This document shows, piece after piece, positions 2,113 to 51,254 of a stretch of DNA of 64,000 nucleotides (its first letter is position 1; every line of letters begins with the position of its first letter). Made by a program: the position numbers and the translations under genes. Origin of the DNA: Burkholderiales bacterium (lineage in GTDB: Bacteria > Pseudomonadota > Gammaproteobacteria > Burkholderiales > SG8-41); the NCBI GenBank assembly GCA_019751125.1, contig JAIENU010000017.1, forward strand, positions 21,472 to 85,471, in the 5' to 3' direction. Under the pieces are notes generated by a model. The model searched no databases. It was not told the DNA's origin and was given only the letters and a program-made list of their open reading frames with translations.

Positions 2113-2144
2113 ATAACCCGTTGTTTTTATTGATTAATTTATAA
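2113..2144 (+). repeat. AT-rich intergenic repeat, copy A (forward orientation)
   Basis: Sequence is ataacccgttgtttttattgattaatttataa. It lies between the maeB stop and the fumC start and is near-identical to copy F (44566-44596). Confidence 0.7.
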
Positions 2145-2154
2145 GCTGACGAAC

Positions 2155-3567
2155 ATGGCCAAATTCCGCATCGAACACGACACGATGGGCGAGATCGACG
2201 TGCCCGACAACATGCTGTGGGGCGCGCAGACGCAGCGCAGCCTGCACCACTTCCATTTTCCCGGCGAGACCATGCCGCTGCCGGTGGTGCACGCGCAGGT
2301 GCTGGTGAAAAAAGCCGCCGCACTCACCAACATGGCGCTGGGCGTGCTCGACAAGAAAAAAGGTGCGGCCATCGTCAAGGCTGCTGACGAAGCGCTGGCC
2401 GGCCAGTGGAACGACCACTTCCCGCTGGTGGTGTGGCAGACCGGCTCCGGCACCCAGACCAACATGAACGTCAACGAAGTGCTGGCCAACCGCGCCTCTG
2501 AAATCCTCGGCGGCAAACGTGGCGCCGCGCGCCTGGTGCACGAGAACGACGACGTCAACAAGGGCCAGTCGTCCAATGACACCTTCCCCACCGCAATGCA
2601 CGTCGCCGCGGTGATCGCGCTGGAAAAAGACCTCAAGCCCGCAGTGAAGAAGCTGCGCAACACGCTGGACAAGAAGGCCAAGTCCTTCATGAACATCGTC
2701 AAGATCGGCCGCACCCACCTGCAGGATGCGACGCCGCTGACGCTGGGCCAGGAATTCTCCGGCTATGTCGCCCAGCTCGACCACGCACTGAAACACATCG
2801 ACGCCAGCAAGCCGCACCTCTGCGAACTCGCCCTCGGCGGCACCGCCGTCGGCACCGGCCTGAATGCCCATCCGAAATTTGCCAAGGACGTTGCCGCGCA
2901 ACTGAAGAAACTGACGGGCCTGCCCTTCGTCACCGCGCCGAACAAGTTCGAGGCGCTGGGCTCCTGCGACGGCGTCGTCGCCGCCCACGGCGCGCTGAAA
3001 ATGCTCGCCGCCGCGCTGATGAAAATCGCCAACGACGTGCGCTGGCTGGCCAGCGGCCCGCGCTGCGGCATCGGCGAACTCTCCATCCCGGAAAACGAGC
3101 CGGGCTCCTCGATCATGCCGGGCAAGGTCAACCCGACCCAGTCCGAATCGATGACCATGGCCTGCTGCCAGGTCTTCGGCAATGACGTCGCGATCAACGT
3201 CGGCGGCTCGATGGGCAACTTCGAGCTCAACGTGTTTCGCCCGATGGTGATCCGCAACTTCATGCACAGCGCCCACCTGCTGGCGCATGCCTGCGAGAAC
3301 TTCGAGGAACACTGCGCCATCGGCATCGAACCCAACCGCGAACGCATCGACCAGCTGATGCGCGAATCACTGATGCTGGTGACCGCGCTCAACCCGCACA
3401 TCGGCTACGCCAAGGCCGCCGCCATCGCCAAGAACGCCCACAAGAAAGGCCTGACGCTGAAGGAATCGGCGATCCAGCTCGGCCACCTGACCAGCGCCCA
3501 GTTCGACCAGTGGGTCAAGCCGGAGAGCATGGTGGGGATGAAGATCAAGGTGGCGAAGAAGAAGTAA
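2155..3567 (+). CDS. fumC: class II fumarate hydratase
   Basis: 470 aa. The N-terminus [17 protein letters not shown] and the signature [15 protein letters not shown] are typical of FumC. Confidence 0.96.
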
Positions 3568-3586
3568 GTTTCAGTAGCTTCAAATT

Positions 3587-3624
3587 AAAACGCCCACCGG
3601 CGGGAGTCGGTGGGCGTTTTGTTT
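3587..3624 (+). terminator. rho-independent terminator of fumC
   Basis: Hairpin acgcccaccg / cggtgggcgt followed by ttttgttt, about 20 nt after the fumC stop. Confidence 0.85.
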
Positions 3625-3662
3625 AACACTATCGAGGCGGTACTTTTGATGTCTGTAGATAT

Positions 3663-48552: not shown

Positions 48553-48641
48553 GAAATCTCCTCTCGGTTTTGTTTGTGTAATTGAAGCTGAATCCGGTTG
48601 CTGGTCTTTGTATCGGATGCCTGGAAGCGGCGGCTCGCGGT

Positions 48642-49943
48642 TCAGGTGGCAGGGCCGTGCAAAAGGTGCTCGCGATCTTTAGAAAACATGTGCCGGGCCA
48701 CGGCTTCGTTGACCAGGAATTCGATCAGCGGACGCCGCGCCTCCCCGGCTGCGAGCGAACCCCCGGCTTCACGCAGCTCGTCAGCCTTGCGCAGCAGCCC
48801 GGTGTGGATCCGGCGGTGTTCATCGAGCTGCGGGTGACGGTTTGTCTCGAGCAGTTGTTCCTCGGCGGCAAAATGTCCGCGCAGGGCCTGCAGCAGGGTG
48901 CTCACCGCTGCGTCAAAGACCGCCGGCGGTGCCGATTCGGCGGTGTTCAGGGTGTTGGCGAGTGCAATCAGGTGGCGGTGTTCCGCATCAATCTGGGCAT
49001 GGCCGCTGCCGTTGCTGTCGCGCCACACCAGGCTCATCACCGGCGCCGGATCAACAGCCCAGCTGTCGGAGTTGCCGCGCGGATCAGTGACCACGCGGTT
49101 GCGTCCGCCGTTCTTGGCGACAAACAACGCGGCATCGAGCCGTGAGAACCAGGACTGGACGTCTTCCCTGATGTTGTGTTCCGCCACGCCGATACTGGCG
49201 GTTACCGGAGCCCCATGTGGAAACAGGTGGCCGGCAATCAACTCGCGCAGGTGTTCGGCCAGGATGTGCGCATCGCGGTAACGCGTTGAAACCGCGAGCA
49301 CGACAAATTCCTCGCCACCCCAGCGGAAAAGCAGGTCGGCGCTGCGTATCTTGCGCTGGATCAGTTCCACCACTTCGCACAGCACTGCATCCCCGGTCTG
49401 GTGTCCACTGCGGTCGTTGATCTGCTTGAAATGGTCGACGTCAATCAGCAGAGCCGACAAGGGTTGCCTGAAGCGCAGGCTGCGCGAAAGTTCCGACTCG
49501 AGCACGCGGTTCAGGTGGGCGCGGTTCCAGGCGCCGGTGAGGTGGTCGGTGGCGCTGGCTTTCTCGAGCTCGCTGATGCGTCTGCGCAGGTGGTCAAGCT
49601 CGGGATCACGGGCCGCCGCGATATCGTCTGCCAGCATGATCAGGGTGCCGGCGGCGAGGTTGGTTGACTGTGCGTGGATCTCGGCGGTGTCGCCGCTGCG
49701 GCTGCGCAGGCTGACGGTGCGCCAGCCGCGTCCCGGGGTTTCAAGCAGCTGGCGCAGCGTCCCGGTCTCGAAGTCGGCCGGTTCGAAGCAGGCGCTGTAG
49801 TGGTCGTTGACGCGCACCGTGCCGTCGTTGCCGTGCAGTGCCAATGCCAGTGGAAAGCGCGCGAACAGCTCGCGGTCTTCAGTTACTGGCAGGCGCCGGA
49901 TGCCCGGCTCGGTGCCGGTGGCCGATTTCGAGGTCGGGGTCAT
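48642..49943 (-). CDS. diguanylate cyclase (GGDEF) with C-terminal hemerythrin-like domain
   Basis: GGEEF active site with RxxD upstream. The C-terminus (HAQIDAEHRHLI ... HFAAEE ... HRRIH) has hemerythrin His/Glu ligand spacing. Start set at MTPTSKS (49943) to avoid overlap with the thiolase gene. Confidence 0.85.
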   Translation of the reverse strand: MTPTSKSATGTEPGIRRLPVTEDRELFARFPLALALHGNDGTVRVNDHYSACFEPADFETGTLRQLLETPGRGWRTVSLRSRSGDTAEIHAQSTNLAAGTLIMLADDIAAARDPELDHLRRRISELEKASATDHLTGAWNRAHLNRVLESELSRSLRFRQPLSALLIDVDHFKQINDRSGHQTGDAVLCEVVELIQRKIRSADLLFRWGGEEFVVLAVSTRYRDAHILAEHLRELIAGHLFPHGAPVTASIGVAEHNIREDVQSWFSRLDAALFVAKNGGRNRVVTDPRGNSDSWAVDPAPVMSLVWRDSNGSGHAQIDAEHRHLIALANTLNTAESAPPAVFDAAVSTLLQALRGHFAAEEQLLETNRHPQLDEHRRIHTGLLRKADELREAGGSLAAGEARRPLIEFLVNEAVARHMFSKDREHLLHGPAT

Positions 49944-50013
49944 TGCTGAGGTGTTCGGCGGCAGTGCCCGGGGCCAGCGGCCCCGGGCACTGCCTGCGCC
50001 ATCAGCTTGGTGA

Positions 50014-51204
50014 TCAGAGGCGTTCGAAGACGGCGGCGATGCCCTGGCCGCCACCGATGCACATCGTCACCAGCGCATATTTGCCGCCGGTGCGCTGCAA
50101 TTCGTACAACGCTTTGACCGTGAGGATTGCACCGGTCGCGCCGATCGGATGTCCGAGGCCGACGGCACCGCCGTTGGGGTTGGTCTTGGCTGCGTCGAAT
50201 TTCAGGTCGCAGGACACCGCCAGCGCCTGCACCGCGAAGGCCTCATTCGATTCGATGACATCCATGTCCTCGACCTTGAGTCCGGCGCGCTTCAGCGCAT
50301 TCTGCACGGCGGGTACCGGGCCGATGCCCATGATCTTCGGATCGACGCCCGCGAGTCCGTACGAGACCAGGCGCGCCATCGGCTTCAGGCCCGCTTTTTT
50401 GGCAGCTTCCTTTTCCATCATCACCACCGCTGCGGCGCCATCATTGATGCCCGAAGCGTTGCCCGCGGTGACCGAGCCGCCCTCCTTCTTGAAGGCCGCG
50501 CGCAGCTTGGCGAGGCCTTCCAGCGTGACATCGCTGCGCGGATGCTCATCCTTGTCGAACAGCGTGGTGCCTTTGCGTGTCTTCAGTTCGACCGGCAGGA
50601 TCTGGTCCTTGAAGTAGCCCTTTTCGATGGCGTTGATGGCGCGGCGATGGCTTTCGACGGCGAAGGCGTCCTGCTGTTCACGGGTGATTTTCCACTGCGT
50701 GGCGATATTCTCCGCGGTGATGCCCATGTGCACGGTGTCGAAGGGATCGGTCAGCGCGCCGACCATCATGTCGACCGCGCCGCCGTCGCCCATGCGCTGG
50801 CCCCAGCGCAAGCCCGGCATCAGATAGCCGCCGCGGCTCATCGATTCGGCGCCGCCGCCGACTGCGACGTCGGCGTCACCGAGCAGGATGCCCTGGGCGG
50901 CGGAGACGATGGCCTGCAGGCCGCTGCCGCACAGGCGGTTGACGGTGAGCGCCGTGGTTTCCTGGGGCAGGCCGCCCTTGATGCAGGCGACGCGCGAGAA
51001 ATACATGTCCTTCGCTTCGCCGTGCACGACGTTGCCGAACACCAGCTGGTTGACCTGCTTAGGATCGACCTTGGCCCGGTTCACCGCCTCCCGTACCACC
51101 TGCGCCGCGAGTTCGCTGGGGGCCACATCCTTCAGCGCGCCGCCGTAATCGCCGATTGCCGTACGCACTCCGCTCAGCACCACCACCTCGCGACCATTGC
51201 TCAT
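50014..51204 (-). CDS. acetyl-CoA C-acetyltransferase (thiolase II)
   Basis: VNRLCGSGLQAI active-site Cys and C-terminal GHPIGATG ... CIGGGQG. ATG at 51204 has a ggaga RBS. Confidence 0.93.
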   Translation of the reverse strand: MSNGREVVVLSGVRTAIGDYGGALKDVAPSELAAQVVREAVNRAKVDPKQVNQLVFGNVVHGEAKDMYFSRVACIKGGLPQETTALTVNRLCGSGLQAIVSAAQGILLGDADVAVGGGAESMSRGGYLMPGLRWGQRMGDGGAVDMMVGALTDPFDTVHMGITAENIATQWKITREQQDAFAVESHRRAINAIEKGYFKDQILPVELKTRKGTTLFDKDEHPRSDVTLEGLAKLRAAFKKEGGSVTAGNASGINDGAAAVVMMEKEAAKKAGLKPMARLVSYGLAGVDPKIMGIGPVPAVQNALKRAGLKVEDMDVIESNEAFAVQALAVSCDLKFDAAKTNPNGGAVGLGHPIGATGAILTVKALYELQRTGGKYALVTMCIGGGQGIAAVFERL

Positions 51205-51220
51205 CACTGTCTCCGTTATG

Positions 51221-51254
51221 TAACCGATTGATATTAAAGGATATTTTTATTGAC
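51221..51254 (+). repeat. AT-rich intergenic repeat, copy H (variant with internal insertion)
   Basis: taaccgattgatattaaaggatatttttattgac. Confidence 0.5.

Follow-up and report, generated by a model that had tools for sequence, protein, structure and literature searches.

Introduction

Binding sites for integration host factor (IHF) are classically single, degenerate sequences that each serve a promoter, a recombination site or an origin. The canonical site is built from four elements, namely an A-tract of 4-6 bp in the 5' half, AA/TT steps nine bp apart, the core WATCAA, and TTR after four free bases (N4), which together fix 15-17 of 34 bp (PMC1874591). Here we describe a family of AT-rich repeats, eight copies of which (A to H) lie in a 64,000-nt stretch of a Burkholderiales metagenome-assembled genome (MAG), positions 21472-85471 of contig C271 (hereafter the window). 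The source genome as a whole comprises 3.46 Mb in 275 contigs and is 94% complete. Our analysis indicates that the repeats are probably high-affinity H'-type sites for the IhfA/IhfB heterodimer, most likely serving as architectural bends. Like the canonical IHF site of the lambda attP H' type, they carry the four elements in register within a footprint of ~34-39 bp, and some copies stand upstream of sigma-54 promoters. Unlike canonical sites, they mostly have A at the third position of WATCAA, are far more uniform, number ~450 copies, and are evenly spread, mostly without a tie to a promoter, recombination site or origin.

The nearest repeat families are BIME-1/RIP and the Correia elements, each of them a composite mobile repeat with an IHF site as one component (PMC6907758, PMC2649163, PMC2229807). 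In the bacterial interspersed mosaic elements of E. coli (BIME-1, or RIP-RIB), repetitive extragenic palindromes (REPs) flank an IHF site; as in the present family, the result is a large set of dispersed extragenic IHF sites, many per chromosome, and BIMEs have been proposed as domain barriers (PMC6907758). The repeats described here differ in that a profile of 443 sites shows no conserved REP palindromes flanking the motif, that there is no sign of RAYT-type mobility, and that the sites keep their orthologous positions and are present within genes as well. The Correia elements (CREE) of Neisseria are likewise abundant intergenic repeats of a betaproteobacterium that carry an IHF site (PMC2649163), but they are miniature inverted-repeat transposable elements (MITEs) of 100-150 bp that have terminal inverted repeats and a TA duplication and are mobilised between strains, whereas here none of these is found and the IHF site stands bare. 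Finally, the uptake signal sequences (USS) of Pasteurellaceae and DNA uptake sequences (DUS) of Neisseriaceae are also short motifs with hundreds of copies in specific lineages and in both orientations; in contrast to them, the present motif is AT-rich, lies almost wholly outside genes, has a frequency about ten times lower, and is identical to an IHF site that many other Proteobacteria use singly.

In the literature that we searched, no description of such a family of bare IHF sites was found. What sets it apart is the bare site as a genome-wide, selected and evenly spread signal, with positions fixed since before the genus diversified, and the fact that coding sequence has had to accommodate it, with essential enzymes changed in amino-acid sequence as the price.

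Results

Abundance of the repeat family

A 39-nt position weight matrix (PWM) was iterated from genome-wide matches and applied with score cut-offs of 18 or 28 bits. Genes were called throughout with a simple, home-made codon-usage caller, and all of the genomes compared are MAGs. At 18 bits or more, the matrix finds exactly eight places in the window (34.7-61.4 bits), and these are the eight copies listed in the original prediction, all of which were recovered in place. The strings it had reported as shared between copies are correct as well: CAATAAAAACAATGACTTA (19 nt) in copies B and C, ATTCAATAAAAACAA in B and E, and TTGTTTTTAAACATAA in D and G. Across the source genome there are 504 non-overlapping sites scoring at least 18 bits and 444 scoring at least 28 bits, a density of about one per 7-8 kb, with ~90% of copies extragenic. 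The exact word TTGTTTTTATTG alone is present in 145 copies in the 3.46-Mb genome, as compared to 2 for its reversed control, and the word TTGTTTTTA in 260.

The original prediction had held that such identities were unlikely to arise by chance at a genomic GC content of about 65%. The measured values are somewhat lower (62.5% for the window and 63.2% for the genome), and the claim itself is clearly upheld by a genome-wide scan against shuffled spacers. A match of at least 18 bits is found in 355 spacers, against a mean of 3.8 (maximum 9) in 20 dinucleotide-preserving shuffles, and one of at least 28 bits in 323 spacers against 0.2 after the same treatment, so the motif is far more frequent than composition predicts. 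An AT-rich island in the window (3.5-6.0 kb, 45-50% GC) contains no PWM match, and AT-richness alone is therefore not the source of the motif.

Match to the canonical IHF site

The copies were listed on the strand that reads TAA-N4-TTG-T-tract; it is the other strand that gives the canonical IHF reading (A-tract, WATCAA, N4, TTR), and the profile of 443 sites was read as the reverse complement. In this register the WATCAA core occupies positions 23-28 (A.99, A.98, A.75/T.25, C 1.00, A 1.00, A.98) and the TTR element positions 33-35 (T.97, T 1.00, A.88/G.12), with the intervening N4 at positions 29-32 weakly conserved (0.55-0.99 bit). Both AA steps are present nine bp apart, at positions 18-19 (.77,.70) and 27-28 (1.00,.98); in IHF sites these steps are the points of proline intercalation. 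The A-tract is seen as A at.81-.84 in positions 9-11 and as A or T at 92-100% in positions 12-14, which is the register of the A6 tract in lambda H'. When the PWM is run over the lambda H' site, the same register is returned with the arm's best score of 11.6 bits, as compared to 1.7 bits for the next alignment. At the third position of WATCAA, the only point of deviation from the canonical site, A and T interchange between orthologous sites, and two of the window copies are exact: the reverse complement of copy F, AATCAACGGGTTA, and that of copy H, TATCAATCGGTTA, are each a perfect WATCAANNNNTTR.

Conservation was also compared across the orthologous spacers upstream of fumC (30 species), the locus of copy A. 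Mean pairwise identity at this locus is 0.93-1.00 for the TAA, TTG and T-run positions and 0.29-0.60 for N4, with 0.32 in the 25-nt left flank and 0.79 at the third codon positions of fumC. The conservation footprint of copy A matches the IHF elements. Of the three explanations offered by the original prediction, the first, a family of binding sites for a nucleoid-associated protein, is the one supported, by the presence of the four canonical IHF elements (PMC1874591).

Each site of ~39 bp carries, 5' to 3' on the strand opposite to that of the listed copy A, an A/T tract and an AA step, with the core A-A-(A/T)-C-A-A nine bp on, then four free bases and T-T-(A/G). We infer both IHF binding and an architectural function. 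IHF would bind each site and fold the DNA into a U-turn of ~160 degrees. If IHF does bind, the family would offer a natural system for studying sequence-specific bends in nucleoid folding, domain boundaries and supercoil diffusion. Its consensus is also a candidate optimal IHF site and a possible synthetic bending module.

Single copies in other Proteobacteria and at sigma-54 promoters

Public genomes contain the exact 21-mer ATAAGYCATTGTTTTTATTGA in 66 stretches. Some of these come from the source genus, for example from the MAG 'Betaproteobacteria bacterium Ga0077527', which is 81-90% identical to the source genome over whole loci. The remaining records are from diverse Alpha-, Beta- and Gammaproteobacteria and have one copy each, or two in a few cases. 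Here the word lies ~13-30 nt upstream of TGGCAC-N5-TTGC sigma-54 promoters (loci L035, L065, L026 and L021), beside tRNA 3' ends (L051, L062 and L022) or between iteron-like repeats (L009 and L055), and these contexts are those expected of IHF. A blastn search of a phage collection with a 33-mer gave marginal matches only (E ~0.1-4) and no annotated IHF feature.

In two Pseudomonas/Ectopseudomonas loci the 21-mer is located in the gcvH-gcvP promoter, 13 nt upstream of TGGCAC-N5-TTGCT (L035 7468-7488; L065 3913-3933). Published work places this operon under the enhancer-binding protein GcsR (PMC4894688), and the position of the word suggests an unannotated candidate IHF site in the GcsR-controlled glycine-cleavage promoter. 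Among the 12 sigma-54-like promoters of the source genome, 6 are preceded by a site at a distance of 20-88 nt; a minority of sites may also be used locally in this way.

IHF genes and lineage distribution

The source genome encodes IhfB (C270:20585-20854), which is 60% identical to E. coli IhfB, as well as Fis. No separate match to HU or IhfA was found in the source MAG. In genus member G003, ihfB follows rpsA (L073 1986-2270, minus strand) and ihfA follows pheT (L074 1965-2288, minus strand). The DNA-contacting Arg and Pro residues of arm and body are conserved in IhfA and IhfB of the genus, within RIEIRGFGSF and RPGRNPKTG.

Counts of PF00216 (DNABII) proteins are two in all 10 high-quality genomes of the genus and two in G255 (a sister genus of the same family), G025 and G152, as compared to three to six in ~35 other genomes and in most other families of the order. 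Typing by BLAST against E. coli references and the G003 proteins identifies the two-gene sets as IhfA plus IhfB. The genus appears to lack HU, and since it encodes IhfA and IhfB but no HU, IHF would be its sole DNABII protein.

Expansion of the motif is confined to a few lineages. Eighteen genomes of the genus contain the word TTGTTTTTATTG 22-110 times each, as compared to 0-9 times in 12 other families. A search for the pattern TAANNNNTTGWTTTTA over 300 genomes from 60 families of the order shows enrichment in three groups only: the source genus (168-285 copies), the sister genus G255 (613) and family f8 (51-121). Two other genera of the source family have one copy each. A looser pattern yields the same distribution, with family f8 using the canonical TTGAT form; its genomes G025, G106 and G152 have 448-564 matches to TAANNNNTTGWTWWW, and the typical word TAACTAATTGATTAT reads ATAATCAATTAGTTA on the other strand. 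Family f8 is a second, independent expansion with the canonical core. IhfA and IhfB are encoded in all three expanded groups, almost none of whose genomes has an HU; G322, which has HU, shows no expansion.

Spacing along the chromosome

Spacing was analysed on source-genome contigs of at least 20 kb, where the median gap between sites is 5.6 kb. The coefficient of variation (CV) of the gaps for all sites is 0.63, as compared to 0.91 +/- 0.05 under a uniform null and 0.87 +/- 0.05 when sites are placed in random spacers; for intergenic sites only, it is 0.74 against 0.87 +/- 0.055 with a null of spacers of at least 45 nt. Short gaps are depleted accordingly, with 4.6% of gaps below 1.5 kb (null 13.9 +/- 2.2%) and 11.9% below 2.5 kb (null 26.4 +/- 2.7%). 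A strict sub-pattern in genome G035 behaves in the same way (CV 0.76 against 0.97 +/- 0.09, P = 0.004; gaps below 2.5 kb 3.1% against 17%). The sites avoid one another and are spread more evenly than chance.

The most likely role of the sites is architectural: they would be fixed bends that punctuate the chromosome, serving compaction or as domain anchors in a lineage without HU. In the fullest form of this proposal, which we regard as possible but rather doubtful, IHF would be the main chromosome organiser in the source genus, its sister genus and one other family, with hundreds to about a thousand near-perfect sites acting as U-turn or domain anchors at quasi-regular steps of ~6 kb, and with essential proteins (GlmS, MurD and ~40 more) recoded to host a site for want of a spacer. 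Were this proposal correct, it would amount to a sequence-encoded, protein-specific 'punctuation' of a bacterial chromosome. IHF binding to the sites, if true, would also provide a way to ask what compensates the loss of HU.

Weighing IHF against another reader protein

Several observations weigh against IHF as the reader of these sites or against an architectural role. In 75% of copies the third base of WATCAA is A instead of the consensus T. The uniformity of the family (~35-60 bits) is far above the known need of IHF specificity, and there are conserved extras, such as TCAAT upstream of the core, that fall outside the published IHF consensus; given this excess uniformity and these additional positions, a second constraint or a different reader protein is possible. 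None of the three genes of the pheT-ihfA-merR locus has a tblastn match in the source MAG, although, because the entire locus is missing, the lack of ihfA looks like an assembly gap and not a loss. The organism belongs to a genus of freshwater bacteria and is uncultured, and the public sequencing runs that hold the locus are DNA metagenomes only. The even spacing may come in part from operon structure. Lastly, G093 and G086 have no HU and yet no expansion, and G106, an expanded f8 genome, keeps a divergent HU-like gene (C61:8345-8614; L176) with GHNP for the conserved arm motif GRNP, which may be a decaying or altered HU among relatives that have lost theirs. HU loss was considered as a sufficient cause of the expansion and rejected because of G093 and G086; it is associated with expansion, is neither sufficient nor clearly prior, and the association draws on only two or three independent lineages.

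The best-surviving alternative takes up some of these points. It holds that a different, lineage-specific DNA-binding protein reads the sites and that their likeness to IHF sites is a partial coincidence or reflects co-binding. Such a protein would explain why the information content is far above the 15-17 bp of canonical IHF sites, why TCAAT and a G/Y/C preference within N4 are conserved, and why the motif is expanded in a few lineages even though all genomes of the order that were checked have IHF. Nonetheless, the four IHF elements stand in the right register, and at the copy-A locus it is N4 that drifts while the IHF elements remain fixed. Moreover, the exact 21-mer is used singly in classic IHF contexts in Alpha-, Beta- and Gammaproteobacteria, and a word common to all of these requires a reader protein that is common to all of them. 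We therefore consider a lineage-specific reader improbable, and IHF the better candidate.

Conservation at orthologous positions and inside genes

Copy A was followed through the genus, where all 30 orthologous spacers contain a site in the same orientation (37-57 bits; flank identity 75-93%). The site lies 9-14 nt before the fumC ATG in 26 of the 30 and 23 nt before it in the other 4, while the remainder of the spacer ranges in length between 45 and 213 nt. For the remaining copies, syntenic regions of 11 genomes were compared. Sites are kept in 9/9 orthologous spacers for copy G (32.9-54.5 bits), 6/6 for copy H (21.6-38.0 bits), 3/3 for copy C, 2/2 for copy F and 1/1 for copy D (36.4 bits). 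For copy B, 8 of 9 relatives with an ortholog of the adjacent MOSC-domain gene keep the site in the same orientation, 30-117 nt upstream, while the neighbouring gene differs; for copy E, 2 of 4 relatives have it, in the same orientation and at a similar distance. In total, 61 of 64 orthologous spacers keep the site, with no presence/absence pattern of the kind that the original prediction proposed to look for as a sign of mobility, and the orthologous copies differ by point substitutions.

Sites are also found within coding sequence. Of the 444 sites, 46 (~10%) lie more than 100 nt inside high-scoring open reading frames (ORFs) with high GC at third codon positions on both sides; these copies are in-frame and are translated as, for example, (K/I)FNKNNGL or SIKTMTY. 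In the source genome, glmS carries a site at C267:13710-13748. The codons for ...KIFNKINGL-VILACGTSY form the site; its scores are 35-51 bits across 12 genomes of the genus, the source included, and 43.7 bits in G255 of the sister genus. In the same-family genera g140 and g55 and in nine other genomes, glmS has no site, reading ...AILRQIDSV-LILACGT or similar in GC-rich codons with negative scores. A site in murD (C187:9545-9583) shows the same pattern, with HRVKNINKINNI-xFYDDSKGTN in 12/12 genus genomes and G255 and HRVEKVAEIDGV-TFYDDSKGTN elsewhere. Alignments of glmS and murD with site-less orthologs are colinear and show no length difference. With no indel in either gene, the sites must have arisen by substitution in place, changing the protein, and then been kept. 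Intragenic sites fall in longer genes and in longer stretches without a spacer (median stretch 3982 against 2609 nt, p = 0.004); within the dcw cluster, no other site accompanies that of murD over 8.6 kb.

The sites are old and are held at orthologous positions throughout the genus by selection on the DNA itself. This bears on the possibility that they are selfish non-autonomous repeats, MITE-like or spread by gene conversion, whose IHF-like sequence serves their own mobility. Their high copy number and very uniform consensus would fit such an origin, many copies occupy an entire spacer, and both Correia elements and BIME-1/RIP are small mobile repeats with IHF sites (PMC2649163, PMC2229807). 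However, in the 443-site profile the information ends outside ~39 nt, decaying into AT-rich flanks that return to the genomic GC content, without terminal inverted repeats, hairpins or sharp boundaries. Other points against it are that 61 of 64 orthologous spacers retain the site in unchanged position and orientation, that glmS and murD have kept their lengths, and that the spacing is over-dispersed. We consider a selfish repeat very unlikely, and the decayed miniature mobile element suggested in the original prediction is rejected on the same grounds, namely the lack of terminal repeats, the retention of sites in orthologous spacers and the intragenic copies without an indel.

A DNA uptake signal for natural transformation, comparable to USS or DUS, is less probable still. 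Hundreds of copies in specific lineages, independence of orientation and conservation between related species are all properties that uptake signals would share. The sites are, however, ~90% extragenic and have a density of only about one per 7-8 kb, they match the IHF site in full, and genomes of unrelated Proteobacteria carry one or two copies of the word, located at sigma-54 promoters and at att-like sites. The mutual avoidance of sites would also be unexpected of uptake signals.

Orientation and gene context

Among the 374 intergenic sites with two called neighbours, tandem spacers hold 132 co-directional and 145 anti-directional sites, alongside 49 sites in divergent and 48 in convergent spacers. 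The resulting proportions (74/13/13% tandem/divergent/convergent) follow those of all spacers (75/12.7/12.4%). Site orientation shows no association with the sign of GC skew (68/62 against 63/62, p = 0.80). Neither a conserved hairpin nor a -35/-10 hexamer pair was found in the motif copies in either orientation, and the genes flanking the window copies (fumC, MOSC, GreA-like, CobD-like, YqjK, OYE, YCII, TauE, thiolase and hydrolase) have no common function. Since the copies are indifferent to gene direction, to the class of spacer and to GC skew, a promoter, terminator or RNA element is excluded and the motif acts as DNA. The view that an oriented promoter or terminator does not explain the repeats, first drawn from the window copies, therefore extends to the whole genome, while the alternative of a translation-initiation or UP-like module falls, as the sites are independent of orientation and occur also in convergent spacers and within genes.

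The least likely explanation, a gene-expression motif (promoter or UP element, terminator, AU-rich translation enhancer or RNase site), can point to the many copies that end 0-15 nt from start or stop codons and to one variant with AAGGA at Shine-Dalgarno distance from an ATG, but the even 132 to 145 split, the proportional share of convergent spacers, the lack of conserved -35/-10 geometry or hairpin, the unrelated flanking genes and the in-frame copies within genes leave it next to no room.

More specific candidates were rejected on similar grounds. A sigma-70 promoter would need a hexamer pair with proper spacing and conservation, which was not seen, and a promoter or intrinsic terminator is contradicted by the lack of fixed orientation, -35/-10 geometry and hairpin. 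A KOPS- or Chi-like replication-oriented motif does not agree with the GC-skew result (p = 0.80), nor a regulon with the unrelated flanking genes. The consensus sequences of the Fur box, FNR/CRP, ArgR, Fis, Lrp, CtrA and DnaA match some copies partially at best, and none fits the profile.

The eight window copies

Our gene calls agree with the contexts originally assigned to the copies: tandem for A, G, D, F and H, divergent for B and E, and convergent for C. The reported contacts with coding sequence are likewise borne out for G, D and F, which abut start codons, and for C, which runs into the end of a yqjK-like gene.

Copy A (2105..2143, plus strand, 52.8 bits) is situated in the spacer between an upstream gene (stop at 2080) and fumC (ATG at 2155). 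Copy G (10878..10916, plus strand, 52.4 bits), a TTGTTTTTAAAC variant, fills the spacer from a GreA/B-like to a CobD/AmpE-like gene and abuts the ATG at 10919. In the copy-A and copy-G spacers of relatives (e.g., L090, L092, L100-L108, G003 and G048), a GC-rich REP-like palindrome (CCCTCTCCCCGC...GCGGGGAGAGGG; CCCCCACC..GGTGGGGG) is inserted beside the site in some species but lacking in others. This palindrome is a separate, polymorphic and apparently mobile element, and its placement beside the site recalls the RIP/BIME-1 arrangement of E. coli.

Copy B (6991..7029, minus strand, 61.4 bits) is in a divergent spacer 22 nt upstream of the MOSC-domain gene (ATG at 7052), at the edge of the AT-rich island. 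This island, window 3568-7060 between fumC and the MOSC gene, is missing from all 11 relatives examined, whose synteny restarts at 7061. Its ORFs at 3663-5658 are not called by the codon model, and it is for this reason probably foreign DNA.

Copy C (20026..20064, minus strand, 55.1 bits) occupies a convergent spacer and takes in the final codons, with the stop, of a YqjK-family ORF (19842-20042); its other neighbour, by Pfam families, is the stop of an OYE-type flavin oxidoreductase gene. Copy D (28591..28629, plus strand, 47.8 bits) is a second TTGTTTTTAAAC variant and directly adjoins a YCII-family gene at its start codon (28595, minus strand). Copy E (36513..36551, minus strand, 34.7 bits) is weaker and lies in a 396-nt divergent spacer beside an alpha/beta-hydrolase gene. 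Copy F (44558..44596, plus strand, 46.2 bits), a TTGATTTTA variant, directly adjoins a TauE-family gene at its start (44561, minus strand), and copy H (51212..51250, plus strand, 34.8 bits), a TTGATATTA variant, is found in the spacer that precedes a thiolase gene (start at 51204, minus strand).

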